DNA of 64,000 bases from Pyrinomonadaceae bacterium (GCA_045807745.1 JBJMGT010000015.1:197948-261947); one strand, 5' to 3'; shown: positions 41,782-57,874, counted from the first letter of the stretch. The notes: a model not told the origin generated them from the sequence alone. Translations and numbers: made by a program.

Positions 41782-44700
41782 CTACGGCGGGTTTTTCATT
41801 TCAACAGTTTTGGAGTTTAGTGTGGAGAGAAACAGAGCGGGACAGGGAGCAGCAATGAGTCGCGCAGCGCGTCGCGCTGACAAAGCGAAGTCGTCCCAGA
41901 GAGGAGATGCGGAAAATGCGAGCGGGCGCAGAAGATAGTTGAAGCCCTCTAACGAAGGAGCAGGGGATGAGCCGCCGCAGGGGTTCAACGGGGAGCTTGT
42001 GTTGCGTGGGTTCGGGGCGATAGCTGTGAAATCAGCGGAGTTGTTGTCGCTGTCCGTGCAGCCGCCGGACTTACGTAGGGCAGCAGTCGTCGTGCTCGGC
42101 GCGGGCGCGGGCGCAGTCTCCGAGCAGCTAGCCGTCGAACCGTAGCCAGCGAGATCGACGTAGGACGAAGAGAGGGGGCAAGTGCCCGTCAGCCCCGCCG
42201 TCGAATTAACCAGCGCGACCTTGCCCGCCGTCGCGCTCATGGTGGTTGTGCCAGTTGCGTCAGGTGTGGGTAGCAGGTTAACGCCGTTGGCGTTGCCGGA
42301 CTCCTGCACCAAGTAATACTGGCCGGGTTGGAGCATCACGTTTGTTAGCGGTGTGACCTGCCAGCTTGTGCTGGTCGCAGCGGCGTACTGCACCGACCAC
42401 CCGTTCAAAGAGACGGGCGATGTGCCGCGGTTGAACAGTTCGATGTAATCGTTCTTGTACGTCGAGCACCCCGCGGTCGTGCATCCCGCGCCGCCATACA
42501 CCTGACTGATGACGACGGGCGTCGGCGTCGGAGTAGGTGTTGGCGTTGGCGTCGGTGTCGGCGTCGGGGCTGCGACGCTCAGCGTCGCCGGATCGCTCGT
42601 CAGCGTGTGAACTCCATCCGTCGCCATCGCGTTGATCTGCGCCGTGCCAGCGCTAGCGCCGCGAACTGTGGCGACCGCGCTACCGTCAGGGTTGTTATTG
42701 ATGGCTTCGATCTGCGCGACCGGTTGATTGTCAGACGTAAAGCTGTAGGTCGCATTGGCGAACGGTTGGTTGAATTGATCAAAGGCGCGGGCAGTGAACT
42801 GCTGTGCCTGTCCGACGACGATGGTGGCTGTTGTCGGCGTCAACTCGACGCGCGTGAGCACGGGCGGTGGCGGGTTGATCGTCAAAGTCGCAGACGATTG
42901 TTGCGCGCCGGCGCGCGCGCGGATGGTCGTTGGGCCTGCGGCGAGCGCGGTTGCTTCTGTGCTCGCGCCGGTCGTGGGCGCGAGCGTGGCTTTGGTCGCG
43001 TCGCTCGCGTCCCAGATGAACGAGACGTTCAGCACTTCGACCTCAGCGCTGTTGGCATTAGCGAAAGCGCGGGCGGTGTACGATTGGCGCGCGCCGATGT
43101 CGAGTTGGGCAGTCATCGGCGCGACCTCAATGCGCATGAGCGTTGGCGCGCCGAAGGGTGTGCCGTCGGCGCGCGTGCCCGGCGAGAAGCCGCGCCCGTT
43201 CGCGTTCGCGGTGGTTGTGTGCGCGACGAAAGCCCCGCCATTGTCATTCAAGGCCGCGTCGGGCGCGCGCACGAGCGATTGATCGCTCGGCGCTGGCGGC
43301 GCGTTTGGAGCGGTGCTGCCGTAAGCTTGCGTGGCGATGACGATGTCGCCCGCGCCGGTCGGCAGCTTGACGGTGACCGTGTCGCCGCCGTCATTCAGCC
43401 CGAGCGAGCCGGTCGTGGCGATGAGCGCGCCACCAAACGCCGGATCATTTAACGGTGGATTGCCGCCGCCGAAAATGACGACGGCGCGCCCGGCGGCAAG
43501 CGTCGTGTTCGCAGGGAATGTGTAGCGGTTCGCGGTCGCGTCCGCGACGACGATGCCGGAGAGATCGAGCAGCGCGTCTGAAGAGTTGAACAACTCGATG
43601 AACTCATCGTCGTCGCTACTACGCACGCCGTCGCGGTTCGCATCGCCTTCAACATTCTGTGTGCTCGCGTTGTCGGGCGGCACGTCCGCCAGAATTTCAT
43701 TGATGACGAGCGGCGCGCGCACGTTTAGCAGGGCTTGACCTGAGACCGTGCTGCCTGCGCCATCGGCAGCCATTGCGTTAATCGTGACTGCGCCGATGCC
43801 GACGCCGCGCGCGAGGCCGTCAGCTCCAATAGTTGCCGTCTGCGCATCGCTCGTCGTCCAACTGAATGAAGCGTTCGGCACGAGTTGATCGTTTTGATCG
43901 AAGCCTTGCGCGGTGAACTGTTGTGTCTGCCCGCGATTGATATTTGCGCTTGCAGGATTGATGACAACGCGCGTAAGAATCGGCGGCGGTGGGTTGACCG
44001 TGAGCGCGGCCGGGTCGCTCGTGACAACAGTCGCGCCGCTAGTCGCCATCGCGTTGATGTGAGCCGTGCCCGCGCTGAGTCCACGCGCGGTGGCGATGGC
44101 TCTGCCGTCCGTGTTGTTCGACACGGATTCGATCTGCGCGACGTTCGCGTCGTCAGAATTAAAGGTGTAGGTCGCGCCGGTGAACGCATGGTCGAACTGA
44201 TCAAAGGCGCGCGCGGTGAACTGCTGTGTCTGATTGACAATGATCGTGGCCGCTGTGGGCGTCAACTCGACGCGCGTTAAGACAGGCGGCGGCGGGTTGA
44301 TCGTCAAGGTCGCTGTTGCTTGCAGACCGCCAGCTTGCGCGCTGATGTTCGTTGTGCCGGCGGCCACGGCGGTCGCTTCAGTGCCTACACCGGTGGCGGG
44401 CGCAACGTTGGCTTTGGTCGTATCGCTTGCGGCCCAGATGAAAGAGACGTTGGCCACTTCGACCTCGACGCCGCTTGCGCTACTAAAGGCGCGCGCGCTG
44501 AAGCCTTGCCGCGCGCCGATGTCGAGTTGCGCAGCGGCCGGTGTGACCTCTATGCGTGTGAGGGGCGACGAACCAAAAGGTGTGCCGTCGGCGCGCGTGC
44601 CCGGCGAATAGACGCGTCCGCCGGCGCTCGCGGCGCTGGCATGCGCAACGAAACTGCCGCCGCTCATGCCAATCTCTGCATCGGGCGCGCGCGTCAGCGC

Positions 44701-47700
44701 TTGATCGCTTGGCGCGGCCGGAGCACCGGGCGCGGCGTTGCCGTAAGGTTGGGCCGCGATGATGATGTCGCCGCCGCTCGCGGGCAGCTTGACGGTGACG
44801 GTATCGCCGCCGTCGTTCAGACCGAGCGAGCCGGTCGTGAAGATTAGCGCGCCGCCGAACGCGGTGTCGTTCACAGGCGGCGCGCCCCCGCCGAAGACTA
44901 CGACGCTACGCCCCACTTCAAGCGTCGTGTTTGGCGGGAAGGTAAATCGATTACTGGTTGCGTCTGCGAGCACGATGCCCGATAGATCGAGCGGCGCGTT
45001 CGAGTTGTTGAACAACTCGATAAACTCGTCGTCGTCGCTGCTGCGTACACCGTCGCGGTTGGCGTCGCCTTCGACGTTCGTCGTGCCGGCAATATCAGGC
45101 GGTACATCGGCCAGAATCTCGTTGATGACGAGCGGCGCTTGTACGGTCAGCATTGCTTGACCGGAGACTGTGTTGCCCACGCCGTCCGGGGTTGTGGCAA
45201 TGACATTGACTGCGCCGAGACCGACGCCGCGCGCCAAGCCCTCAGTGCTCACGTTTGCGATCTGCGTGTCGCTGGTCGTCCAGCTGAACGAAGCGCCCGG
45301 CACTAATTGATTGTTCTGATCGAACGCCTGCGCGGAGAACTGCTGCGTCTGCCCGCGATTGAGCGCGGCACTCGCGGGGCTGACGACGACACGCTGCACA
45401 ACGGGCGGCGGCACAGAGACCTGCAAGTCCGCCTCATCGCTCATGACGCTGTTTGCACCGTTCGTCGCAGCGGCCCGAATTTGCACCGTGCCCGCATTGC
45501 GGCCAGTGACGGTTGCAACAGCGCGGCCGTTTGCACTGTCAGTTGTGACATCTGTGATCGCGGCGATGCTCGTGTCGCTCGACGTGAAAATGAATGTCGC
45601 ACCGGGTAATGTGCGGTCGAACTGATCGAATGTTTGTGCGGTGAACTGTGTCGCGCCGCCGACGATGATAGAGGCGTTCGCGGGTGTGAGTTGCAGACGT
45701 GTTAAGCGCCCGGCGCGGGGCGCGAAGAACGAGCCGTCGAGTTTTGTGCCGGGCGAGAATTTGCGTCCGCCCGCGCCGGGCGCGAGTGTGTGGCGCAGGA
45801 ACGCGCCCGTTAGATCGGGCGCGCGCGTGATGGACTGATTCACCGAGTCGCCGCCGAAGTCATCGCCCGACGTGCCGTAAGCGAACTGCGCCGCTGGCCG
45901 GCCCGCATTATCACGAATCACAATGGTCAGCCCGCTATTCGTTAACGCCAGCCCGCCGCTTGAAACAGTAAGCACCTGCGCGCCACCAAATGCCGGGTTA
46001 TTCGCGTCGAAGCTCCCGCCCCCGAATACGATGATGGCGTCACCCGCAGGCAACATCGTGCGGGCCGCAAACGTGTGGCGCGTAGTTTCATTCAAGCTTG
46101 TTAGCGCATGTGTGCGGATCGTCCAGCCGCTGAGATCAAGCGGTGCGGAGGATCTGTTGACCAGTTCAATGAACTCATCGTCCGTGCCGCTGCGCGTCCC
46201 ATCGTGATTGGCATCGCCCGCCGCACCGTCCGGCGGATCAGCCAAGACCTCGTTGATGAGCAGTACCGGCACGCTAACGTTGAGCAGCGCCGTGCCCGTC
46301 AGGTTCTGCGCCGACGCCGTGATGTCGGTCGCGCCCTGTGCAATTGTGTTCGCCAAGCCCGTCTGAGCAATCGTTGCGACCTGCGGCTCGCTCGAAGCCC
46401 AAGTGAACGTGATGCCGCTCATCTCTTGGCTACGCTGATCAAAGGCCCGCGCGGTGAACTGCTCCTGCACGCCGGTGGGCAGCGTTACAGAGCCGGGTGT
46501 GATCTCAATCCGCGTCAACACAGGCGGCGCCTCGCGCACGGTCAGTTGTGCAGATGCAGAGCGCACGCCGCGCGCCTGTGCCGTGATCTCGCACATGCCG
46601 GGCGCAAGCGCGCGCGCCAATCCGTTGTTATCAATCGTCGCGACGAGCGGCGCGCTCGTCTGCCATTGAAAGATGATGCCCAGCAACTCGCGCCCGGCTT
46701 GATCGAAGGCGTGCGCGTTGAACTGTTGTTGTGTGCCGGTCTCGATGTTCGCACTTGCAGGCATGACCTCGATGCGAGCGATGGGCGCAGTCGGGGCGAA
46801 AGGCGCGCCGTCGGTGTGCGTGCCCGGTGAGAAGGCGCGCCCGTTGCTGTCGGCGACTTGTTGGTGCGGCGTGAAGTCGCCCGTGATGTCGCGCGCGCGC
46901 GTGAGTGATTGATTGTTGTCGCCGGGCAGGTTCACGTCGTCGCTGTAACTCATCTGCTCGATGAGCGTGCCGCTCGCATCAAGCAGCGTGACCGTGCTGC
47001 CGCCATTTAGGAGCGAGAGGCCGCCGGTCGAAGCCGTGAAGACTTGCGCTGCACCGAAGACGGGATCGTTTGGATTGAACGTGGCCGTCTCTGCGCCGCC
47101 GAAGACGACCAGCGCAGTGCCGGGCGGTAGGATCGTGCCGACGGCGAATAGGTGGCGGAGAGTGTCCGTGCCGCCGCTCGTGCGCGTGAGTAGTTGATAG
47201 CCGCCGAGGTCGTAATCCTGCGCGGCGGCGTTGACGATCTCTATGAACTCGTCTTGCGCGGCGTTGCGTATGCCGTCGTGGTTAGCATCACCGGCCGCGC
47301 CGTCGGGCGGATCGGCCAACACTTCATTGATGACAAGCGTGAGCGGATAAACTTCTAGCTGAGCCGTCGCGCTAACGTCCCCGGCAGCGGCGCGGATGAT
47401 GGCAGTGCCCGCCTGCAAGCCATGCACTGTGCCGTCCGCATCTACGCTTGCAATATCAGGCGCGCTTGAGTTGAAGATAACGGGCGCATCGGCGACCACG
47501 ACACCGGCTTCGTCGCGCACTGTTGCCAAGAGCCGCAGCGAGCGCCCGATGCCGACGCGCGCCGCAGCGGCTGCGAGCGTGATGCTGGCTGCGCGGCGCA
47601 CACCGCTAAATCTGATTGTGGTCGGATTGCTGTCGCGTCCGCCCGCCCTGACAACTAGGGGCACGACACCCGCCGCGCGTAGCGCGCTCGTCAACAAGAC

Positions 47701-49500
47701 GTGAATCTCGTCGAGACCGGACAGATCAGGCGAGGGCGCAACTGTCTCAACTGTCAATTGATGACCGCCGATTGAGACTGTCAGGTCTGTGGCGTGGCGC
47801 ACGCCGGTCGCGAAGATGATCAGACGGCGCGGGTTGTTCTGTGCGTCGACGGGATCGAAGGGTGGGCGCAAAAGCATGGACGCTTCAAGCGCAACGGCTG
47901 CGCCTGTGCCGTCGCCCGGTTCGGTGAAGACGCCGGGTGCGGCGGGCAGGATCATAACGTTGCCGCGCGACTCGTAACCGTCATGATTGCGCACACTGAC
48001 TGTGGCCATGCCGGACTCGATGTCAGGCGGCACGATGAAGTTGATCTGTGTGGGCGACACATAGAGCAACTCGGCAGCGCGGCCGTTGACCGACAGTGTC
48101 ACGTTCGCGACTGTGCGCGGGAAAGAGCCGTCGGCCAGCCGCTCTGTCTGCATTGAGACGAGCGCGAGGTTGCGGCCGGTGGCAATGGCAATCTGATCGG
48201 GCGCGAGCGCCTTAACGGCGGCCGGTTCGTGCCCGAACGCCGCGCCATGCGTGAGTCGTAAGTCGGTGGCAAAGGGCGAGGGCGGGGCAATTTCGGTCAC
48301 GAAAATTTCTGAGTCGTTAGCGAGATCGGCATCTGCGACTGCGCCCGCCAGTACGCGCGGGAAGTTGAAGGCGACGAGCGCGCCGTCATCGTTGAGCGAA
48401 GAGACGACTTCAGCCGCGGCCACTGCGGGTGCGCTCGTCAAACGCGTGAAACGATTGGCCGGTATGTCGTAAGCATAAAGCTCTACGCTGCCGTCGCTGT
48501 TGCCGCCCACGACGTTGCGGCGGGTCGCAAATGCGACGCGCTCGCCGTCGCCGCTGATCGTCGCGTTGAGCGGCACGTCTGTGACGCGTGCGCCCAAGAT
48601 CGTGAGTTGGCGCACGGCGTTGTTGCGCCCGTCGTAGAGATAGACCTGCGTGGTGTTGGCGGCCGTTTCGCTTGCGTAGACGATACGCGTGCCGTCATCG
48701 CTCACAGCCCGACCCGGCGTAAACGTTAACGCGCGCGCGTCTGTGACGAGGACGCGTGTACGCCCCGACGTTACTTCGTAGAACTTTAGATCGCGTGTAA
48801 ACGGCGTGTCATTCACGTGCGCGCGTCTATCTGAAATATAGGCCACACCCGTCCCGTCGCCGCTCAGCTTTGCGTCGCTTGCGCCCACGATGCCGTTTGT
48901 GTTGGTGATTTGTTGGAACGAGTGACGGGTTACGTCATAGATGAAGATTTCGAGATTCGCGTCGGGGTTTGCGCCGGTCAGATCGCGATTGGAGGCGAAG
49001 GCTATTAGCTCGCCATCGTTTGACATTGACGGTGCGAAGTTACCTTGTGCGACACGCAACGTTGGGTTGTCGGGGGCGGTGTTCGTGAGTTGTTGCAGTT
49101 GGTCTGGTGCGGCGAGAAATATCTCCGCGTTGCCGTCGAGGTTGTGACCCGGTATGAGATCGCCTGTACTGGCGAACGCGGTGCGCGCGCCGTCTTGCGA
49201 TAGGGCCGGTGCGACGGCCCGCGACGCGGCTAATTGCGTAAACGCGGGGGCAGCACCGCCGATGTCGGCGCGTAACGCATGGAAGCCCGGCGCGCTCGGT
49301 GCACCGGCCAGATTCTCCGTCGATTCAAAGACGATGTACTGACCGTCGCCGCTCAGTGTGGGGTTCAGATTGAGGGCCTGTTCCGGCGTGTGGGTGATGC
49401 GCCGGAGCGCGCCGGCTTGCGTGTGCGCGCGTCTGCCGGTCAGGTACACGACGAGGGCGACGCAGATGAGGATCGCAAAGAGCCTTGGATGAGGGGACAA
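41782..49500 (-). CDS. giant secreted protein (2572 aa): N-terminal TolB/PD40-like beta-propeller, then alternating lamin-tail (LTD) and Big_2 domains with a C-terminal PT linker
   Basis: Signal peptide MSPHPRLFAILICVALVVYL. PD40-like repeats (DG..IVF.S). Five LTD-like modules (LVINE(V/I)LADPP...DANRDG...DEFIEL(F/V)N), each followed by two Big_2-like modules. (PT)7 linker. Extensive nucleotide-level repetition. Confidence 0.7.
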   Translation of the reverse strand: MSPHPRLFAILICVALVVYLTGRRAHTQAGALRRITHTPEQALNLNPTLSGDGQYIVFESTENLAGAPSAPGFHALRADIGGAAPAFTQLAASRAVAPALSQDGARTAFASTGDLIPGHNLDGNAEIFLAAPDQLQQLTNTAPDNPTLRVAQGNFAPSMSNDGELIAFASNRDLTGANPDANLEIFIYDVTRHSFQQITNTNGIVGASDAKLSGDGTGVAYISDRRAHVNDTPFTRDLKFYEVTSGRTRVLVTDARALTFTPGRAVSDDGTRIVYASETAANTTQVYLYDGRNNAVRQLTILGARVTDVPLNATISGDGERVAFATRRNVVGGNSDGSVELYAYDIPANRFTRLTSAPAVAAAEVVSSLNDDGALVAFNFPRVLAGAVADADLANDSEIFVTEIAPPSPFATDLRLTHGAAFGHEPAAVKALAPDQIAIATGRNLALVSMQTERLADGSFPRTVANVTLSVNGRAAELLYVSPTQINFIVPPDIESGMATVSVRNHDGYESRGNVMILPAAPGVFTEPGDGTGAAVALEASMLLRPPFDPVDAQNNPRRLIIFATGVRHATDLTVSIGGHQLTVETVAPSPDLSGLDEIHVLLTSALRAAGVVPLVVRAGGRDSNPTTIRFSGVRRAASITLAAAAARVGIGRSLRLLATVRDEAGVVVADAPVIFNSSAPDIASVDADGTVHGLQAGTAIIRAAAGDVSATAQLEVYPLTLVINEVLADPPDGAAGDANHDGIRNAAQDEFIEIVNAAAQDYDLGGYQLLTRTSGGTDTLRHLFAVGTILPPGTALVVFGGAETATFNPNDPVFGAAQVFTASTGGLSLLNGGSTVTLLDASGTLIEQMSYSDDVNLPGDNNQSLTRARDITGDFTPHQQVADSNGRAFSPGTHTDGAPFAPTAPIARIEVMPASANIETGTQQQFNAHAFDQAGRELLGIIFQWQTSAPLVATIDNNGLARALAPGMCEITAQARGVRSASAQLTVREAPPVLTRIEITPGSVTLPTGVQEQFTARAFDQRSQEMSGITFTWASSEPQVATIAQTGLANTIAQGATDITASAQNLTGTALLNVSVPVLLINEVLADPPDGAAGDANHDGTRSGTDDEFIELVNRSSAPLDLSGWTIRTHALTSLNETTRHTFAARTMLPAGDAIIVFGGGSFDANNPAFGGAQVLTVSSGGLALTNSGLTIVIRDNAGRPAAQFAYGTSGDDFGGDSVNQSITRAPDLTGAFLRHTLAPGAGGRKFSPGTKLDGSFFAPRAGRLTRLQLTPANASIIVGGATQFTAQTFDQFDRTLPGATFIFTSSDTSIAAITDVTTDSANGRAVATVTGRNAGTVQIRAAATNGANSVMSDEADLQVSVPPPVVQRVVVSPASAALNRGQTQQFSAQAFDQNNQLVPGASFSWTTSDTQIANVSTEGLARGVGLGAVNVIATTPDGVGNTVSGQAMLTVQAPLVINEILADVPPDIAGTTNVEGDANRDGVRSSDDDEFIELFNNSNAPLDLSGIVLADATSNRFTFPPNTTLEVGRSVVVFGGGAPPVNDTAFGGALIFTTGSLGLNDGGDTVTVKLPASGGDIIIAAQPYGNAAPGAPAAPSDQALTRAPDAEIGMSGGSFVAHASAASAGGRVYSPGTRADGTPFGSSPLTRIEVTPAAAQLDIGARQGFSARAFSSASGVEVEVANVSFIWAASDTTKANVAPATGVGTEATAVAAGTTNISAQAGGLQATATLTINPPPPVLTRVELTPTAATIIVNQTQQFTARAFDQFDHAFTGATYTFNSDDANVAQIESVSNNTDGRAIATARGLSAGTAHINAMATSGATVVTSDPAALTVNPPPPILTRVVINPASANINRGQTQQFTAQGFDQNDQLVPNASFSWTTSDAQTATIGADGLARGVGIGAVTINAMAADGAGSTVSGQALLNVRAPLVINEILADVPPDNASTQNVEGDANRDGVRSSDDDEFIELFNSSDALLDLSGIVVADATANRYTFPANTTLAAGRAVVIFGGGNPPLNDPAFGGALIATTGSLGLNDGGDTVTVKLPTGAGDIVIATQAYGSTAPNAPPAPSDQSLVRAPDAALNDNGGAFVAHTTTANANGRGFSPGTRADGTPFGAPTLMRIEVAPMTAQLDIGARQSYTARAFANANSAEVEVLNVSFIWDASDATKATLAPTTGASTEATALAAGPTTIRARAGAQQSSATLTINPPPPVLTRVELTPTTATIVVGQAQQFTARAFDQFNQPFANATYSFTSDNQPVAQIEAINNNPDGSAVATVRGASAGTAQINAMATDGVHTLTSDPATLSVAAPTPTPTPTPTPTPTPTPVVISQVYGGAGCTTAGCSTYKNDYIELFNRGTSPVSLNGWSVQYAAATSTSWQVTPLTNVMLQPGQYYLVQESGNANGVNLLPTPDATGTTTMSATAGKVALVNSTAGLTGTCPLSSSYVDLAGYGSTASCSETAPAPAPSTTTAALRKSGGCTDSDNNSADFTAIAPNPRNTSSPLNPCGGSSPAPSLEGFNYLLRPLAFSASPLWDDFALSARRAARLIAAPCPALFLSTLNSKTVEMKNPP
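42600..47000. repeat. at least 3 intragenic tandem repeats of ~1.42 kb (one LTD plus two Big_2 modules each) inside the giant gene
   Basis: Shadow ORFs in the track recur with a 1419-bp offset (42821 versus 44240, and 45641 roughly 2x1423 from 42794), with near-identical translations (VGVNSTRV.TGGGGLIVKVA). The protein-level LTD units 3 and 4 are nearly identical. Confidence 0.65.
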
Positions 49501-49833
49501 GGCTGACGCTCCAGTTTCCGTCGGGCGCGTGTTTGAGGACGCGGCCGTGAAGAGTTAGATCAAACGAAAGTTGTTAGTCGTCTGTAATGCTGGTTCGTTG
49601 GAAAACGTTTGCTGTCTGCGCGCGATGGTTTGAACAAGTGCATAAGCAGGATGAGGAAACCTAATCGGCGCAAGTGCCCGCGAGGTGGGCGCATTCTACA
49701 CCTTCAGGCCAGAATGGCAAGGAAAATTTTTCCACCACCCGCAAGAATTTTTGCTATAGTGCCCGCGCACACTACACCTGTGCCGCCGCGAGACTCCTCA
49801 CGGCCACTTGAAACTAAGGAAAAACACGCTGTC

Positions 49834-50046
49834 CTAGAACCGGGTCAGCACTTGCAGTAGGTTCAGCTCGATCTCTGTCAGCATGTTTGACGCTCCGGTC
49901 CAGATAATGCCGCTCGTTGACGGCGGTGGCGGTGGCGGTGGCGATGCCACCCCTGTCCAGATGATCCCGTCATCGGCAAATGCTGAAGGCGTAAGTATGA
50001 GCACCAGTACAAATGTTGCCAGAGCTTTTCGGCAGTTCTTCTTCAT
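49834..50046 (-). CDS. small secreted peptide precursor with two GIIWTG repeats flanking a poly-Pro tract
   Basis: Start placed at MKKNCRK (ATG 50046), preceded by GAGAGAGG SD. Sec signal MKKNCRKALATFVLVLILTPSAFA. Predicted mature ~46 aa: DDGIIWTGVASPPPPPPPSTSGIIWTGASNMLTEIELNLLQVLTRF. Local GC ~40% versus ~64% background. Confidence 0.45.
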   Translation of the reverse strand: MKKNCRKALATFVLVLILTPSAFADDGIIWTGVASPPPPPPPSTSGIIWTGASNMLTEIELNLLQVLTRF

Positions 50047-50162
50047 CTTGATTCCTCTCTCTTGAGGTGGTTCAGTGAAACCAGAGCTATCTGGTTTAAT
50101 TCGCGCCTTATCTGCTTGATAAGACGTAGCTTTGCCATGCTTGAAATAATTTTGCAAGCACA

Positions 50163-52103
50163 ATGAAAGGCAACCCTCACATGGAATTAACTAATACATT
50201 ATTGAGGCAATTAGACGATCCTACCTTGACCTATAATGAGCAAGCGCGCCTGCGCTGCTCTCTGGCAGAGGTTTTAGAGCAAGGGGGGCAGTATGAGGCC
50301 GCACGCGACGCGCTCGGAGAACTGTGGCAAGGCATAGGCCAGCGCCCGAATGTCGAAGAGTTAACAGACATGGTAGCCGCAGAATTAATCTTGCGCGCTG
50401 GCTCATTGTCCGGGTGGCTTGGTAGCATCCGGCAGATTGAAGGAGCACAGGAGACGGCGAAAGATTTAATCAGCGAAGGTATCAGTCGCTTCCACACTTT
50501 AGGTGAACCCATAGGAGCAGCTACCGCGCAGTGTGAGTTAGGCTACTGCTATTGGCGAGAGGGCGCATATGACGAGGCACGCGTGATCTACGCCGATGCT
50601 TTAGAGAAAATACCTGATAACAATAATTCAGACCTCAGAGCAAAAATATTAGTACGTAGTGCAATCGTTGAATCATGCAGTGGCCGGCATAACGATGCGC
50701 TTCGTATTCTGACGGACGCAAAGTCATTATTTGTAGCGAGCGATAATCACTCATTAGTAGGTAAATTCCATAATGATCTCGGCAGTGTGCTTACGATATT
50801 AGGCGAGACTGAGCACCGCCCCGATTACATCGACCAAGCAATTCTTGAATATACGGCCGCAGCATATCATTTTGAGGAAGCAGGGCATACAGGCTACCGC
50901 GCGAGTGCTGAAAACAACTTAGGGTTTTTGCTTTACACCATCGGCCGTTATGAGGACTCCCGCCAGCATCTGCATCACGCGCGACGGTTGTTTGCTAGTG
51001 TGAACGATAGCGGCCGGATCGCACAGGTCGATGATGTGCTCGCGCGTGTATTACTGGCTGAGGGCAAACCGCGGATCGCGGCGAGGGTGATCGGTGCGGC
51101 GGTGCGGGCGCTGTCTAAGGGCGGGGAGCAGGGTTTGCTCGCAGAAGCGCTCACGACGCAGGGGCGCGTGCTGGCGCGGCTCAATGATTCAGCCGCGTCG
51201 CAGGACAAGTTTCGCCAAGCGGCTGATCTGGCGGAGCAGGCGGGCGCGGTCGAGGATGCCGGGCGCGCGCTGCTGGCGCTGATCGAGGAGCATGGGGAAT
51301 GGCTTGCAGAGCCGGAGTTGGTGGCCGCATACGAGCGCGCAGATGAATTGCTCAAAGCGACTCAGGACGCGGAGACTATCGCGCGGCTGCGGGCTTGTGC
51401 CCACCGCTTAGTCGCGGCGCGTCGCGTCGCCCTCCCGGCCGAAGTGAAGCGTAGGCGCGCGGACTTCTGGAGCAATTTCTCCCTGCCCAAACGAGTCCGA
51501 GCTTATGAAGCCAGATACATCCGCCGCGCGCTGCTTGAGGCTGGGGGTAGTGTGAGTCGCGCGGCCCGGCTGCTCGGTTTCAAACATCACGCCTCGTTGG
51601 TGGCTTTATTGCAAAGACGGCACAAGAGTCTAGCACATCTGCGCACGACGCCGGAGAAAAGAAAGCAAAGTATTATCCGCCTGCGCGGCCCGCGGCACAC
51701 GCCTGACGTGCGGGCGAAGCTGCCTCTGCGCGTGCGCGCCATCCTACACGTAGAAGACAATCAGTTAGTGGCCGACTTAGTGCGCGATGTATTTGAACTG
51801 GAAGGTTGGCAGGTCAAGACGTTGGTTGAAGGCACACAAGCTTTGAGCCTGTTGGCCGGTAAAGCGCACTTCGACCTGCTGCTGCTTGATAATGATCTGC
51901 CGGGTCTCGGCGGCCTGGAACTCATACGCGAAGTGCGCCGACTCGCCCATCGCCAGCACGTACCGATTATCATGCTGTCCGCCGATGATGTTAAGGCATT
52001 AGCGGAGCGGGCCGGCGCGGACGTGTTTTTACGTAAGCCCGAAGATATTCCTGTGCTCTGCCAGACCGTCCGCCGTCTATTAGACGCGGCCGGCGATGCT
52101 TAG
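50163..52103 (+). CDS. TPR-repeat / Fis-type HTH / C-terminal receiver-domain regulatory protein
   Basis: ~400 aa of TPR-like helical repeats. Fis-family HTH (RAYEARYIRRALLEAGGSVSRAARLLGF). A C-terminal REC domain (ILHVEDNQLVADLV...LLLLDNDLPGLGG...VPIIMLSADD...FLRKP). The likely start is the second ATG at 50181 (MELTN). Mosaic GC content. Confidence 0.6.
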   Translation: MKGNPHMELTNTLLRQLDDPTLTYNEQARLRCSLAEVLEQGGQYEAARDALGELWQGIGQRPNVEELTDMVAAELILRAGSLSGWLGSIRQIEGAQETAKDLISEGISRFHTLGEPIGAATAQCELGYCYWREGAYDEARVIYADALEKIPDNNNSDLRAKILVRSAIVESCSGRHNDALRILTDAKSLFVASDNHSLVGKFHNDLGSVLTILGETEHRPDYIDQAILEYTAAAYHFEEAGHTGYRASAENNLGFLLYTIGRYEDSRQHLHHARRLFASVNDSGRIAQVDDVLARVLLAEGKPRIAARVIGAAVRALSKGGEQGLLAEALTTQGRVLARLNDSAASQDKFRQAADLAEQAGAVEDAGRALLALIEEHGEWLAEPELVAAYERADELLKATQDAETIARLRACAHRLVAARRVALPAEVKRRRADFWSNFSLPKRVRAYEARYIRRALLEAGGSVSRAARLLGFKHHASLVALLQRRHKSLAHLRTTPEKRKQSIIRLRGPRHTPDVRAKLPLRVRAILHVEDNQLVADLVRDVFELEGWQVKTLVEGTQALSLLAGKAHFDLLLLDNDLPGLGGLELIREVRRLAHRQHVPIIMLSADDVKALAERAGADVFLRKPEDIPVLCQTVRRLLDAAGDA

Positions 52104-52148: not shown

Positions 52149-52694
52149 ATGCCTGAAATTGAGACTGCCCGACTGCATCTGCGGTCATTCACCCCAAACG
52201 ATCTGGACGCGCTTGCACGCCTCTTCGCCGACCCGGAAGTCATGCGGCATCTCGGCGTCGAAAGCGGTAAGACGCTGACGCGGGCGGAGACACAATCCGT
52301 CCTCGACAGATATATCGCGGTCTGGGCTGAGCACGGCTTTGGCATCTGCGCGGTGTTGCACAAAGCTACAAAGCAGTTGATCGGTCTGTGTGGGTTGCGT
52401 CTACGGCAGACGCCGCCGGAGTTGCTCTATGTTCTAAGCAAAGAATGGTGGGGGCAGGGCTTGGCCGTCGAAGCCGCACGGGCCTGTCTCCGTTACAGCT
52501 TTGCAGAACTAAAGCTTGAGCGCATCGTGGCGTTGACCAGACCGGATAACGTCGGGTCGCGCCGCGTACTGGAGAAACTCGGCATGCACAACGAACAGGC
52601 AGTAATGGTCTATGGCGTCGCGGCGGTTAGCTACGAACTGACGCGGGCGAAGTTCCAGCCGAGTGCAGTCGACTATTTGATCAAACGGGATTGA
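52149..52694 (+). CDS. GNAT family N-acetyltransferase (RimJ/RimL-like)
   Basis: 181 aa. HLRSFTPNDLDAL...WWGQGLAVEAARACLRYSFAELKLERIVALTRPDNVGSRRVLEKLGM matches the GNAT acetyl-CoA fold motifs. Confidence 0.7.
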   Translation: MPEIETARLHLRSFTPNDLDALARLFADPEVMRHLGVESGKTLTRAETQSVLDRYIAVWAEHGFGICAVLHKATKQLIGLCGLRLRQTPPELLYVLSKEWWGQGLAVEAARACLRYSFAELKLERIVALTRPDNVGSRRVLEKLGMHNEQAVMVYGVAAVSYELTRAKFQPSAVDYLIKRD

Positions 52695-52731: not shown

Positions 52732-54627
<1,896 letters not shown>

Positions 54628-54806
54628 AAAAAATTCCCGCGCCAAACAACGCGGGACTTCTGAGCGAATCGAAGTTGACGGACTCTTAAAAGCGCCGAGC
54701 TGTTTAGCTGTTTATTTTACGTGGCCGCAAGTCGCCTTAACTCACCACGTTTTTCATCCGCGCTTATACGCCGCGCGGTATGTCCCTGTCAAGTTTGTAT
54801 CGGGTA
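54628..54806 (-). promoter_or_regulatory. leader of the yitJ-like gene with a near-consensus sigma70 promoter and a terminator-like hairpin abutting the start codon; candidate riboswitch or attenuator
   Basis: On the minus strand: TTGACA (54787-54792), an 18-bp spacer, then TATAAG (54763-54768). The leader contains stem-loops (acgtgg...ccacgt). It ends with GAAGTCCCGCG-ttgtttgg-CGCGGGAATTTTTT immediately before the ATG. Confidence 0.45.
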
Positions 54807-55268
54807 CTACTTGCGCAAGGCGTTAATGACTTCAACCTCCTTGTCTGTCGGCAATCTTCCGACCCAAGCTTTCGTCACCACGCCTTGCGCGTTGACGAGC
54901 AAAAGCGTTGGCGTGCCGCTTATGCCAAGTGCGCCGAGCGAGGCTTGCCTAACATCTTTGATTGGCACGCCTAAGCGACTGAGATAGGCGCGACTGTCGG
55001 CCGCAGCGCCGGGCAAAATGGCGGCCAACTTGGTGTCGCTCTGCGCGCCTGGCTCTTTAATCAACTGTTGATAGAACGGGGCGCTGTCCGAACAGAAATG
55101 ACAGCCATCGCGCAGCATAAGTAAGAGGGTCTGTTTATTCTCCGCCCAATTCATTCCAGCAAGTTGGACGGTCGAGCCGACCGTTAGTCCGGTAGGCCTC
55201 GCTTGTGCAGCTAGAATTTTAGTGAAGTTGGTATATGGTAAAGACCATTTGTTGAGCAAACCATACAT
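54807..55268 (-). CDS. thioredoxin-fold protein with a CxxC motif
   Basis: 153 aa with CHFC and a cis-Pro-type loop GTPTLLLVN. TlpA/DsbA-like. Confidence 0.5.
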   Translation of the reverse strand: MYGLLNKWSLPYTNFTKILAAQARPTGLTVGSTVQLAGMNWAENKQTLLLMLRDGCHFCSDSAPFYQQLIKEPGAQSDTKLAAILPGAAADSRAYLSRLGVPIKDVRQASLGALGISGTPTLLLVNAQGVVTKAWVGRLPTDKEVEVINALRK

Positions 55269-55666
55269 TGCGCTGAATTCATTTCAATTTCCCTTCATTC
55301 AGCTTAATTGGAAAGCTGAATTCTGAACTGAACCACAAGGAAATTGGCGAAACCTTATGAGGATTTCGTCAGCGGAGTTTGCGAGATAGGCTGCTTATAC
55401 GCTCGTCGTATTCTGACGTCAAGACTACCTTTTCGTGCATTGCGGACTTATTCGCAACAGGTACTCTATCAACGCAGAAATCGACGCGCCGCCTTAAGAA
55501 CAATTTAGATGAAACACTTGCCTTACCTTGACAGATACAATCGAATTTTGGCTGAATGCTACCGTTAGTTCACCGAACTCTTCCTAGCACGTCCTGCTGT
55601 TCCATGCTTGCGCGCTTGATGCGCGCGCGCCTGACTGCCGCGCTTAATCTGATTGGAGAAACGATT

Positions 55667-57874
55667 GTGCGTAACTCAAGTCTGCTGTTGAAACTAGCCC
55701 TTGTCCTGCTCGTCATCTGCCCGGCGGCGCTCGCACAGGAGCGTTTGCTGACGATTGAAGACATTTACGATCCTGTGAAGAAGGTTGACTTCAGCGGCAC
55801 GCCCGTCAACCCGCGCTGGCTGAAAGATGGCGTCAACTATCTACAGACCAATCCGCCCAACTCCGGCAAGCCGCGCATACTGAAGGTCAACGCGCTGACG
55901 GGCGCGAGCGTGCCATTTTTTGACGCGGCCAAGATGGAAGCAGCGTTTGCCGCCATGCCGGGTCTGAGCGCGCAGGACGCGAAGCGGCTGGCGAATCAAG
56001 GGGTCTATCAAATGAACCCGGCGCAGACGGCCTTTCTCCTCAATCAAGCTAACGATCTCTTCTATTACGAACTTGCCAGCGATAAGGCTGAGCGTCTAAC
56101 GAACAATAAAGATGAAGAGGTCGGCGAGGCGTTTAGTCCCGACGGGCGGATGGTGAGTTTCGTGCGCGGCGGTAATCTCTTTATCCTTGATCTCGGCAGC
56201 AAAAAAGAGCGCAGGTTGACGAGCGACGGCGGCCCGAAAATGTTCAACGGGCGGCTCGATTGGGTCTATCAGGAAGAGGTCTACGGGCGCGGCAACTTCG
56301 AGGCTTACTGGTGGAGTCCCGATTCGACGCGGCTCGCGTTCCTGCGGCTCGACGAGAACCCTGTGCCGAGTTTCACCGTCGTCGATCACATCCCGCTCCA
56401 TCAAGAGTTGGAAGTGACGCCTTATCCAAAGGCCGGCGATCCGAATCCGCTCGTGCGGCTGGGCGTCGCTAATGTGACAGGGGGCGATGTGCGTTGGGTG
56501 GATACGGCGCAGTACAAGCCGGTTGATCTGCTCATCGTCCGCGTCGGGTGGACGCCGGACGGTAAACACGTGGCCTATCAAGCACAGAATCGTGAGCAGA
56601 CGTTTCTCGATCTGAACTTCGCTGATCCAAACGACGGCAAGTCGCAAAATGTCTTGCATGAAACGTCGAAGGCGTGGGTTGAAGTGACGGACGATAATCC
56701 GCGCTGGCTCAAAGACGGCTCGTTTCTGTGGCTCAGCGACCGCACCGGCTTCAAGCACATCTATCACTACGCGCCCGACGGCAAGCTGCTGCACACGGTC
56801 ACCAACGGGCGCTGGGACGTGCGCTCAATCGACGGCGTGGACGAGGCTAAGGGGCTAATCTATTTCAGCGGCACGGAGCACAGCGCCATCGCCAATCAAG
56901 CTTATCGCGTCAAACTCGACGGCACGGGGCAGACGCGTCTGACGCAAGCCGAGGGCAGTCATCGCCTCAGCTTTAATTCAACGCTGACGCACTTCGTGGA
57001 CTCATGGAGCGACATCAACACGCCGACGCAAGTGCGCCTTAACAACGCAGACGGCACACTCGCGCGTGTGCTCGACGAGAACAAGGTCGCGGCGCTCGGA
57101 GCATACCGACTCGGCCAGACGGAGTTCGTGCAGGTAAAGACGCGCGACGGCTTCACGATGGACGCGATGATGATCAAGCCGCCCGATTTCGATCCGGCGA
57201 AAAAGTATCCGGTCTTCGAGTTCACCTATTCAGGGCCGCAAGCGCCGCAGGTACGCAACGCGTGGGGCGGGCAGACCTACATGTGGCATCAGTTACTCGC
57301 ACAGAAGGGCTACATCATCTGGATTTGCGACAACCGCACGGCGTCGAACAAGGGCGTCGAATCCGCTTGGCCGCTCTACAGCAATTTCGGTGAGTTGGAG
57401 CTGCGCGATCTGGAAGACGGCATTACGTGGCTCAAGAGCCAACCCTACGTGGACGGCACACGCATAGGTCTCTGGGGTTGGAGTTACGGCGGCTTCATGA
57501 CCTCATACGCGCTGACGCACAGCCAGAGTTTTAAGCTGGGCATCGCCGGCGGCACGGTCAGCGACTGGCACGACTACGACTCGATCTACACAGAGCGCTA
57601 CATGCGCACGCCGCAGAACAACCCCGAAGGCTATCGCAAATCTTCGCCGCGCTATGCCGCCAAAGACCTGCACGGCAAGCTGCTCTTAATTCACGGCGCG
57701 ATGGACGATAACGTGCACGTGCAGAACACCATCCAGTTCGCTTATGAGCTACAGAAGGCGGACAAGGAGTTTCAGTTGATGCTTTACCCTAAGTCGCGGC
57801 ACGGTGTCACAGACCCGCTACTCGTCAGACACATGCGCCAGATGATGACCGACTTCGTACTCCAGAATCTTTAA
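55667..57874 (+). CDS. S9B family dipeptidyl-peptidase IV-like serine peptidase (beta-propeller plus prolyl-oligopeptidase domain), secreted
   Basis: GTG start at 55667, preceded by GGAGAAA SD and followed by a signal peptide (LLLKLALVLLVICPAALAQ). A DPP-IV-like N-terminal propeller. Catalytic GWSYGG and downstream Asp/His regions. Confidence 0.8.
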   Translation: MRNSSLLLKLALVLLVICPAALAQERLLTIEDIYDPVKKVDFSGTPVNPRWLKDGVNYLQTNPPNSGKPRILKVNALTGASVPFFDAAKMEAAFAAMPGLSAQDAKRLANQGVYQMNPAQTAFLLNQANDLFYYELASDKAERLTNNKDEEVGEAFSPDGRMVSFVRGGNLFILDLGSKKERRLTSDGGPKMFNGRLDWVYQEEVYGRGNFEAYWWSPDSTRLAFLRLDENPVPSFTVVDHIPLHQELEVTPYPKAGDPNPLVRLGVANVTGGDVRWVDTAQYKPVDLLIVRVGWTPDGKHVAYQAQNREQTFLDLNFADPNDGKSQNVLHETSKAWVEVTDDNPRWLKDGSFLWLSDRTGFKHIYHYAPDGKLLHTVTNGRWDVRSIDGVDEAKGLIYFSGTEHSAIANQAYRVKLDGTGQTRLTQAEGSHRLSFNSTLTHFVDSWSDINTPTQVRLNNADGTLARVLDENKVAALGAYRLGQTEFVQVKTRDGFTMDAMMIKPPDFDPAKKYPVFEFTYSGPQAPQVRNAWGGQTYMWHQLLAQKGYIIWICDNRTASNKGVESAWPLYSNFGELELRDLEDGITWLKSQPYVDGTRIGLWGWSYGGFMTSYALTHSQSFKLGIAGGTVSDWHDYDSIYTERYMRTPQNNPEGYRKSSPRYAAKDLHGKLLLIHGAMDDNVHVQNTIQFAYELQKADKEFQLMLYPKSRHGVTDPLLVRHMRQMMTDFVLQNL

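Follow-up and report, generated by a model that had tools for sequence, protein, structure and literature searches.

A gene at positions 50163..52103 (plus strand) of a 64,000-nucleotide stretch from a Pyrinomonadaceae bacterium (GCA_045807745.1 JBJMGT010000015.1:197948-261947; hereafter the window, all positions being counted from its first letter) encodes a protein in which a long array of tetratricopeptide repeats (TPRs) is followed by a Fis-type helix-turn-helix (HTH) domain and then by a receiver domain (REC). What would such a protein sense, and is its domain order, together with an uneven GC content, the mark of a chimera put together by domain shuffling or horizontal acquisition, as the original prediction had it? 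We think that a small neighbouring gene is central to the answer. The conserved functional unit, as the comparison of many loci shows, is a two-gene module made of the TPR protein and a divergently transcribed gene for a Sec-type precursor. We would give an even chance to the idea that this module is a peptide-receptor signalling system resembling those of the RRNPP type, in which the receiver would add a phosphorylation input.

The small gene (49834..50046, minus strand) encodes a tandem-repeat precursor of 70 amino acids, whose translation contains a signal peptide, two copies of GIIWTG, a poly-proline spacer and a C-terminal helix. Its layout is MKKNCRKALATFVLVLILTPSAFA and then, beyond the predicted cleavage site, DDGIIWTG VASPPPPPPPSTS GIIWTG ASN MLTEIELNLLQVLTRF; written out in full, the precursor is MKKNCRKALATFVLVLILTPSAFA joined at that site to DDGIIWTGVASPPPPPPPSTSGIIWTGASNMLTEIELNLLQVLTRF. 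A Shine-Dalgarno-like GAGAGGAA stands 8 nt upstream of the ATG, and a longer version of 109 amino acids with a TTG start (49834..50163), which overlaps the start of the regulator, is not conserved. Precursors are 61-91 amino acids long across the family, and a profile search returned 1,947 homologues of 71-90 amino acids, every one of them labelled 'hypothetical' and none belonging to a Pfam or NCBIfam family. They have a common design: a Sec-type signal peptide mostly ending in AFA, two to five copies of a G-x-(I/M)-x-T-(G/D) hexamer, of which the first stands directly at the predicted cleavage site, proline-rich spacers, and a C-terminal helix with the conserved motif ...TEIALNLLQSVLSLF. The AlphaFold2 (AF2) model of the precursor has a helix at residues 3-23, disorder at 24-49 and a second helix at 50-69. 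Judged by simple rules (positive charge in the n-region, 10 or more residues in the h-region, and a small-x-small site between positions 18 and 28 that is mostly AFA with G behind it), the hallmarks of a signal peptide are found in 135 of 135 unique precursors.

This gene is the only neighbour conserved throughout the family, all others being common to at most nine loci. Under strict criteria 77 of 82 loci have a small divergent open reading frame (ORF) upstream of the regulator, and the regulators of these loci are 43-100% identical. (In what follows, L-numbers denote the examined loci of the family and P-numbers its relatives in databases.) L082 also carries it, with a GTG start, as do L083, which like L082 has an AAA+ domain, and members devoid of a receiver. 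It is also found with three relatives in which the TPR part is joined to GGDEF-EAL domains, outputs that do not include a DNA-binding domain: all three loci carry a divergent ORF of the precursor design, with GDIGGG five times in L087, GDLGTD five times in L089 and GDISAGG four times in L092. The association thus goes beyond that of a transcription factor with its target, since proteins devoid of a DNA-binding domain carry the small gene too, and this gene appears to belong to the TPR input and not to the DNA-binding output.

The second line of evidence comes from the hexamers themselves. An internal hexamer repeat matching at five or more of six positions is present in 81 of the 135 precursors, and 62 distinct hexamers occur among those 81; the best internal match averages 4.60 of 6 positions, against 3.03 for matches to other precursors and 2.75 in shuffled controls. 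In the 37 precursors whose peptide copies are identical, 158 of the 314 comparable codon pairs differ synonymously, as can be seen in the window itself (GGG ATC ATC TGG ACA GGG versus GGC ATT ATC TGG ACC GGA). Because half of the codon pairs differ in this way, the copies are old as DNA and yet have been kept identical as peptide. Orthologous pairs separated by a dS of about 0.1-0.9 leave both copies unchanged (GIIWTG twice in L009 and L019, GVIYTD twice in L012 and L013, GIIWTE twice in L016 and L071). Paralogues differ: a single metagenome-assembled genome (MAG), MAG9, has GIIWTG, GIIWTE, GIMWTG and GVLHTD/GVLWTE. Between L001 and L086 the dN/dS ratio is 0.53 in the peptide core, 0.17 in the signal peptide and 0.14-0.18 in the TPR part.

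The other half of the module is the regulator. The ORF of 646 amino acids begins at 50163, but most homologues have their first residue where M7 stands, and the homologue alignment shows no conservation of the ATG upstream, so that the true start is probably the ATG at 50181, giving a gene at 50181..52103 (plus strand) and a TPR-HTH_8-REC protein of 640 amino acids. The public record for the same organism (MFL6208940.1, our P0004, 'response regulator', 438 amino acids) takes as its start the GTG at 50787, inside the gene, and so lacks the first 208 residues of the 646-residue ORF; the dropped part lies within a segment of low GC content at third codon positions (GC3) that is described below, and this unusual codon composition probably misled the gene caller. 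Pfam places TPR_12, TPR_2, TPR_8 and related models over residues ~24-275 (66 bits for TPR_12), HTH_8 at 446-472 (22.8 bits, borderline against a gathering cut-off of 22) and Response_reg at 527-636 (68 bits); it finds no further domain in the window protein, Sigma54_activat being absent even at E<=1. The NCBIfam matches are to generic receivers and to the TPR part of AfsR, and to nothing else; weak TPR_MalT and AfsR-TPR matches were also seen.

The AF2 model of the regulator (31 homologues in the alignment, mean confidence score (pLDDT) 85.9) has an unbroken helical-repeat solenoid over residues 5-423. Its TPR-like part of about 20 helices, residues 7-423 (50181..51431, plus strand; pLDDT mostly >90), is the proposed ligand or peptide input. 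Then come a small helical bundle corresponding to the Fis/NtrC-type HTH_8 at residues 432-493 (51456..51641, plus strand), followed by a conserved basic tail, RHKxLxxLRTxPEKRxxSII; a basic, disordered linker at residues 498-522 (51654..51728, plus strand; pLDDT 28-31); and a receiver of α/β fold at residues 526-645 (51738..52097, plus strand), which Pfam also recognises. The borderline score notwithstanding, HTH_8 is a genuine NtrC-type domain, because relatives exceed the cut-off (25-32 bits; 31.6 in L074, 31.5 in P0191) and because the homologous segment of L082 sits behind Sigma54_activat (204 bits) and AAA_lid; PADLOC, too, gives a match between the segment and the HTH at the C-terminus of an RtcR/PspF-type model. 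As to the receiver, it superposes in Foldseek on those of PmrA, RstA and BfmR (TMt 0.89), and its phospho-acceptor site is intact: in the receiver alignment, D576 (codon at 51888-51890, plus strand) and K625, the latter followed by P626, are invariant in 58 of 58 REC-bearing members, while E531, D532 and S/T606 are each retained in 55 of 58. For the solenoid, the top Foldseek matches are peptide-binding TPR superhelices, LGN/Pins first (E 1e-8) and then the degron receptor APPBP2, with the Rap-Phr complexes 4gyo and 6t46 near rank 48-50 (TMt 0.61-0.63); such matches fit peptide binding and are not specific to it. A PDB profile search with the regulator returned receivers only, and no solved structure related to the TPR-HTH core. 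In sum, this is a cytoplasmic regulator with a TPR solenoid of ~420 amino acids as input, HTH_8 as DNA-binding output, and a receiver appended.

The order TPR, HTH_8, REC that the original prediction had read from the sequence is thus what the Pfam scan and the AF2 model give, and the acceptor aspartate that it placed in LLLLDNDLPG is the invariant D576. It had also called this order an inverted response-regulator architecture, by contrast with the NtrC-like one, and thought it unusual, naming a common architecture as what would count to the contrary, and here the comparison with relatives leads elsewhere. More than 120 cluster representatives of ~640 amino acids match at E<1e-220 with 56-80% identity; these near-full-length homologues come almost entirely from MAGs of Pyrinomonadaceae and other Acidobacteria and from soil metagenomes, and are annotated as 'response regulator', 'CheY-like chemotaxis protein' or 'tetratricopeptide repeat protein'. 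Among species-representative genomes there are 276 stretches with a relative, the best 80 of them all from Pyrinomonadaceae or Blastocatellia, to which the family is on this evidence restricted; several paralogues per genome occur across the family, with none found elsewhere in the window. The architecture is thus a normal and old feature of the clade. A search with the TPR-HTH core (residues 7-505) gave 428 clusters at 50% identity (E<=1e-30), and in the best 150, which we classified, the commonest form is TPR-HTH_8 alone (~500 amino acids, ~85 representatives), followed by TPR-σ54 AAA+-HTH_8 (~29, including L082 and L083) and TPR-HTH_8-REC (~17). In the commonest relatives HTH_8 is therefore in its usual C-terminal place, and 'inverted' is misleading for a protein in which a receiver has been appended behind it.

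Rarer fusions link the TPR part to GGDEF-EAL (P0247, P0268), to TIR (P0142), to a hybrid histidine kinase (P0134), to a relic AAA-lid followed by HTH (P0128) and to HTH-GNAT (P0121); P0390 is also listed among the relatives with the TPR module on alternative outputs. At least six different C-terminal outputs are therefore found on the TPR core, and they are interspersed on a crude neighbour-joining tree of that core; the relatives that do not have a receiver end in the linker or just past it, with no remnant of a receiver downstream. Because the same TPR module is fused to differing outputs, the solenoid behaves as a portable input domain, and the receiver as a C-terminal add-on behind a normally placed HTH_8. 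The AAA-lid relic of P0128 suggests descent by loss of the ATPase. In L030, L069 and L078 the gene is interrupted and the receiver continues in another frame; these are pseudogenes or assembly errors. The TIR-fused relative adjoins an integrase, and TIR fusions prompted a check for membership of a defence system, for which PADLOC gave domain-level matches only; we did not retain this idea.

The two genes share a divergent control region of 134 bp (50047..50180) that is nearly free of gaps in an alignment of 43 loci whose proteins are only ~57-60% identical, with a modal ATG-to-ATG spacing of 133-135 bp. It contains two palindromes, both candidate operators: IR1 (50078..50097), AAACCAG-N6-CTGGTTT, whose arms are 88% Watson-Crick over the 43 loci, and IR2 (50103..50126), GCGCCTTATC-TGCTT-GATAAGACG, whose arms co-vary, being CCTATC/GATAGG in 29 loci, CTTATC/GATAAG in 11 (the window included) and an intermediate with C·A in 3. 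In IR1 and IR2, mismatches of the wobble type have no strand bias (19 versus 23), which speaks for a DNA operator and against an RNA stem formed by one strand; the RNA-hairpin reading is accordingly disfavoured, by what is a weak test. No σ54 -24/-12 motif was found in 77 control regions nor in those of L082 and L083, with a simple regular expression that could miss weak sites, and neither a terminator nor an Rfam match was found in the control region and gene.

A further property of the locus came from a comparison with sister contigs. L001 and L085 are close relatives of the window, ~93% identical elsewhere and ~70% identical over a multi-allelic cassette at 49800..51170 that takes in the precursor gene, the control region and, from the start of the TPR part, some 330 codons. 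Nucleotide identity to L001 is 0.88-0.98 on both flanks and 0.52-0.77 within ~49800-51170, and the comparison with L085 gives the same right-hand break. The three loci are mutually 0.65-0.79 identical in the 5' part and 0.89-0.97 in the 3' part, and the 5' part of L001 is closest to that of L086 (0.83-0.90, including a precursor of the three-repeat type), while their 3' parts are only 0.61-0.81 identical. Third-position identity at codons for the same amino acid also drops, from 0.79-0.95 outside the cassette to 0.44-0.76 inside it, which shows recombination and not only selection on amino acids. The window gene is a recombinant relative to the two sister genomes, on the evidence of three alleles from three contigs and not of a population sample.

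The cassette has a GC content of 0.523, against 0.604 in its flanks, and this brings us back to the GC mosaic. GC windows give 0.46-0.55 over the first ~800 bp of the gene, 0.65-0.68 at 50950-51550 and 0.57-0.58 at the 3' end, so that the mosaic of the original prediction is real, and it holds at synonymous sites too: GC3 is 0.38-0.60 in the N-terminal bins, where 0.74-0.79 is expected from amino-acid composition and the codon usage of the window, with a trough at residues ~87-250 (0.38-0.47 observed, 0.74-0.76 predicted). Bins with a GC3 of 0.47 or less make up 0.3% of the 339 bins of 40 codons in 19 other genes of the window, and for the whole gene GC3 is 0.60, against 0.73-0.85 in those 19. 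Amino-acid composition can be rejected as the cause, the expected GC3 being 0.74-0.79 throughout the gene. Recent foreign acquisition can be rejected as well: the trough recurs in 84-91% of 58 family genes, and it is therefore a maintained trait of the family and not the mark of a single recent transfer. We also note that the trough persists even though the synonymous sites of the family genes are mutually saturated. Its borders lie away from the domain borders (it overlaps the recombinant cassette), and the right border of the cassette falls inside the TPR solenoid. What stands of the idea of shuffling or horizontal acquisition is the mosaicism, the swapping of outputs and the recombinant gene; what does not stand is a recent foreign origin of the low-GC segment.

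How might the two genes work together? If they form a signalling pair, the precursor would be exported and cleaved after ...AFA, and proteases would free units containing the repeated hexapeptide, with the poly-proline spacers and the C-terminal helix as processing or recognition elements. The peptide would build up outside the cell, be re-imported, and dock in the concave groove of its cognate TPR solenoid. Binding would alter the occupancy of IR1 and IR2 by the HTH_8 dimer and lead to autoregulation of both genes, and the HTH_8 regulator would probably control further targets. D576 could in addition be phosphorylated by an unlinked kinase, a second input that would probably bear on how the neighbouring HTH dimerises or binds DNA. 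The precursor gene and the first ~330 TPR codons would be a specificity ('pherotype') cassette swapped by recombination, an exchange that would produce the observed break in identity, and this cassette would coincide with the low-GC3 segment.

We also put forward, more tentatively and at somewhat less than an even chance, a broader proposal: that this would be the first family of peptide signalling with cytoplasmic receptors in a Gram-negative phylum (Acidobacteriota: Blastocatellia), independent of the RRNPP systems of Firmicutes. It would be characterised by multi-copy hexapeptide precursors, orthogonal pairs within one genome, recombining pherotype cassettes, and a plug-in TPR receptor wired to HTH_8, to σ54 activation, to GGDEF-EAL and, via the receiver, to a phosphorelay.

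Several observations weigh against peptide signalling and should be stated together. In a Mantel test, distances of the peptide core correlated no better with those of the TPR part than with those of the C-terminal part (all r≈0.75-0.80), and the partial Mantel correlation was higher for the C-terminal part; we dropped both tests as deep phylogeny dominates them. The fold matches of the solenoid are generic, LGN/Pins leading the list and Rap proteins not appearing before about rank 48. The signal peptides were judged by simple rules and not by SignalP. The dN/dS of the peptide core is raised and yet remains below 1, over few codons, and the C-terminal helix, the most conserved part of the precursor, is barely accounted for by the model. 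No small ORF was found with the TIR-fused relative, where only 450 bp of upstream sequence were searched, nor with a distant hybrid kinase (35% identical), which has a 635-residue secreted neighbour instead. A single recombination tract would transfer adjacent genes together whether or not their products interact. Palindromes like IR1 and IR2, sought in distant clades and at the GGDEF-EAL loci, were found only in the window's own subclade, and no σ70 consensus promoter was recognised in the control region, any more than a σ54 motif. Over more than 80 loci there is no conserved neighbouring kinase (no HisKA/HATPase gene), transporter or peptidase; with no transporter or peptidase linked, every step after Sec has to be assumed, namely further export, processing and uptake back through both membranes. 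Finally, all traceable members come from MAGs or metagenome contigs, and no cultured host was found.

The best of the other explanations is that the precursor is a co-expressed secreted product (an envelope, matrix or adhesion component, or an antimicrobial peptide) and no ligand at all, with a metabolite or a different protein sensed by the TPR part, and a bidirectional promoter as all that the two genes share. We think this unlikely, though it deserves to be taken seriously: a conserved divergent control region with palindromes is well suited to a dedicated regulator and its target, the genes for import and processing are unlinked, the peptide core is in the Mantel comparison no closer to the TPR than to the C-terminal part, and the conserved, amphipathic C-terminal helix could have a function in a mature small protein. 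It does not readily account for the equal linkage of the small gene to the three TPR-GGDEF-EAL proteins, which have no DNA-binding domain, nor for hexamers that are identical in spite of half-divergent codons and change together between paralogues, as would be expected of a short unit that is released and specifically recognised, and not of a structural protein; the several paralogous pairs per genome, each with its own hexamer, likewise resemble orthogonal signals and receptors.

There is another possibility, to which we would give distinctly less weight as a whole, judging it improbable, namely that the TPR part holds the precursor inside the cell before export, by its signal peptide, its repeats or its C-terminal helix. 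It would then act like a TPR chaperone of type III secretion that releases a co-activator, and would report on the status of export or synthesis and not on cell density. It is common for TPR proteins to bind C-terminal segments, whether extended or helical, and the C-terminal helix is here the part conserved best; such a mechanism needs no re-import machinery, which fits the lack of linked transporters, and it would work equally well with outputs that do not bind DNA. On the other hand, Sec substrates normally leave the cell quickly, and neither a variable multi-copy hexamer that is identical within each precursor nor the position of its first copy, exactly at the signal-peptidase site, is explained.

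Still less probable, in our view, is that the small gene encodes the multi-core precursor of a ribosomally synthesised and post-translationally modified peptide (RiPP) or a bacteriocin, with the TPR protein as a pathway regulator or immunity factor. Repeated core-like units, a proline-rich spacer and a conserved flanking helix that might serve for 'recognition' do recall multi-core RiPP precursors, and some clades have units with cysteine (GETQSPPC and GQTDTPPC, for example). Yet none of the more than 80 loci has a conserved neighbouring modifying enzyme, dedicated exporter or immunity gene, the signal peptides are ordinary Sec signal peptides and not RiPP leaders, and no precursor family of Pfam or NCBIfam matches. 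As an observation on these units in their own right, precursors of the Blastocatellia clade such as those of L052, L060 and L068 have Pro-Pro-Cys units (GETQSPPC, GQTDTPPC and GEIQTPPC), for which disulfide or thioether chemistry is possible.

The view of the original prediction, that this is a plain chimeric response regulator, recently acquired or shuffled, whose GC blocks are the joined pieces, is the least probable of all: it can point to a real GC and GC3 mosaic, to an existing recombination tract and to frequent swapping of C-terminal outputs in the family, but it is largely refuted by the family-wide GC3 profile (the trough being present in 84-91% of 58 members with saturated synonymous divergence) and by the conserved two-gene module, since it leaves the partner gene out of account, the GC and recombination borders are off the domain borders, and the clade has long had this architecture, in many of its members.

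Returning to peptide signalling as our preferred reading, we describe the remaining neighbours of the module in the window. Just past the precursor gene lies the gene for a giant secreted protein of 2572 amino acids with repeated LTD and Big_2 domains (41782-49500, minus strand); the arrangement is found also at the orthologous L002 and L005 and is not family-wide, and the giant protein could be a local target of the regulator. On the other side, 45 bp downstream of the regulator, a GNAT (Acetyltransf_3) gene of 181 codons (52149-52694, plus strand) recurs in 6 of 92 loci, the distant GGDEF-EAL locus L092 among them, and is fused to the regulator in P0121. With only 6 of 92 loci it is rejected as a core component, and its recurrence may not be due to chance. 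This downstream GNAT gene is present in both L001 and L085, and the MetH-like gene and the S9 peptidase gene that follow it are found in L085 as well.

The first of these two encodes a homocysteine S-methyltransferase-MTHFR fusion of 637 amino acids (52732-54645, minus strand; Pfam assignment from the syntenic gene of L085), an ordinary metabolic neighbour. Behind it, a stretch of about 700 bp (~54825-55525) with an ORF of 153 codons (54807-55268, minus strand) is missing from L085, which is otherwise 90-97% identical; the two close relatives differ here by an insertion or deletion. The second is a secreted prolyl peptidase of the S9/DPP-IV type, with 772 amino acids (55556-57874, plus strand; Pfam assignment again from the syntenic L085 gene). 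It stands 3.4 kb from a precursor with a poly-proline spacer, in a synteny confined to the group of orthologues, and a role for it in processing the precursor is a speculation.

Why would such a module matter? Acidobacteria are among the most abundant bacteria of soils and almost nothing is known of their communication, and signalling by peptides with TPR receptors inside the cell is considered a trait of Gram-positive bacteria; in full-text searches of the literature we found no paper that ties signalling of the RRNPP type, or of peptides with TPR proteins, to Acidobacteria. The module had gone unannotated in spite of ~1,900 precursor genes, hundreds of receptor clusters and dozens of hexapeptide 'words'. 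If our proposal is right, this type of communication extends to diderm bacteria, and the family offers a natural set of orthogonal peptide-receptor pairs, with one sensor domain rewired to transcription, σ54 activation, cyclic di-GMP and phosphorelay. Even if no signalling takes place, it is new to find a portable TPR input so closely paired with a secreted mini-protein of the multi-copy kind.

It remains to compare the module with known systems, first of all the RRNPP(A) systems of Firmicutes and phages (Rap-Phr, NprR-NprX, PlcR-PapR, PrgX, Rgg-SHP and AimR-AimP). A signature of five criteria has been set out for them (propeptide, Sec, receptor size, TPRs and adjacency; PMC10075063), and four of the five are found here, one of them (Sec) only provisionally. 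The precursor of 70 amino acids lies within the range of 10-100 given for propeptides; Sec secretion has its rule-based hallmarks in all 135 precursors, which is the provisional item; the TPR receptor is represented by TPR_12 at 66 bits and by the AF2 solenoid; and the genes are adjacent, being divergent with 134 bp between their starts, in 77 of 82 loci. The exception is size, 640 amino acids against the 250-500 of the signature, with relatives devoid of a receiver (~490-520) on the borderline. Further likenesses are the encoding of a TPR receptor beside a small Sec-type propeptide, tandem copies of the peptide (tandemly duplicated pheromone propeptides are described in Firmicutes; PMC11343458), many paralogous pairs per genome (as in some species of Firmicutes; PMC7425212), and outputs that may or may not bind DNA (Rap proteins have no HTH).

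The differences are as instructive. The host phylum is Acidobacteriota, a diderm one, and not Firmicutes; the TPR part comes first and a Fis-type HTH_8 lies C-terminal of it, where RRNPP receptors have an N-terminal HTH of the XRE type; the putative signal units are N-terminal or inside the pro-region, with a conserved C-terminal tail, unlike Phr, PapR and AimP with their C-terminal pheromones; and there is an extra receiver. Profile searches against Pfam, NCBIfam and PDB gave no homology to RRNPPA receptors (receivers only), and the structural likeness of the solenoid to Rap is no better than to generic TPR superhelices. Because no homology to those receptors is detectable, we regard the module as analogous to the RRNPP systems and not as a member of their family.

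By descent the regulator is related to the σ54 enhancer-binding proteins, through HTH_8 and through the relatives that bear AAA+, minus the ATPase. It has the same type of C-terminal HTH_8 as the NtrC family (REC-σ54 AAA+-HTH_8), and ~29 of the 150 classified relatives keep Sigma54_activat and AAA_lid. Unlike NtrC itself, the window protein has no AAA+ domain and cannot remodel the σ54 holoenzyme, its N-terminal input is a TPR solenoid and not a receiver, the receiver is behind the HTH, and no σ54 motif was found. It also departs from canonical response regulators, with their N-terminal receiver and C-terminal output, in having the receiver as its last domain. In CheV (CheW-REC) the receiver is likewise last, behind the effector part. 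PatA-type (PATAN-REC) regulators have a C-terminal receiver too (PMC11181946). Like these two, the window protein ends in a receiver with an intact phospho-acceptor site; unlike them, it combines this receiver with TPRs and HTH_8, the receiver is optional in the family, and no chemosensory or kinase gene is linked.

MalT/LuxR-STAND and AfsR/SARP regulators also join a large TPR-like sensor to a DNA-binding domain. They differ from the present protein in having an NB-ARC/STAND ATPase and another kind of HTH, and in not being known to be paired with a gene for a secreted peptide, which is present here. Finally, as in comQXP of Bacillus and agrBDC of Staphylococcus, a polymorphic signal gene and a polymorphic part of the sensor stand beside a conserved remainder, with alleles exchanged by recombination between close relatives. 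In comQXP the polymorphic block is reported (Tortosa et al. 2001; Ansaldi et al. 2002) to take in comQ, comX and, within comP, the 5' part that encodes the sensor. Against the general background of such pherotype loci (PMC4408185), the module of the window would differ in where the signal is read: the receptors of comQXP and agrBDC are membrane histidine kinases that sense the outside, and the receptor proposed here is cytoplasmic.

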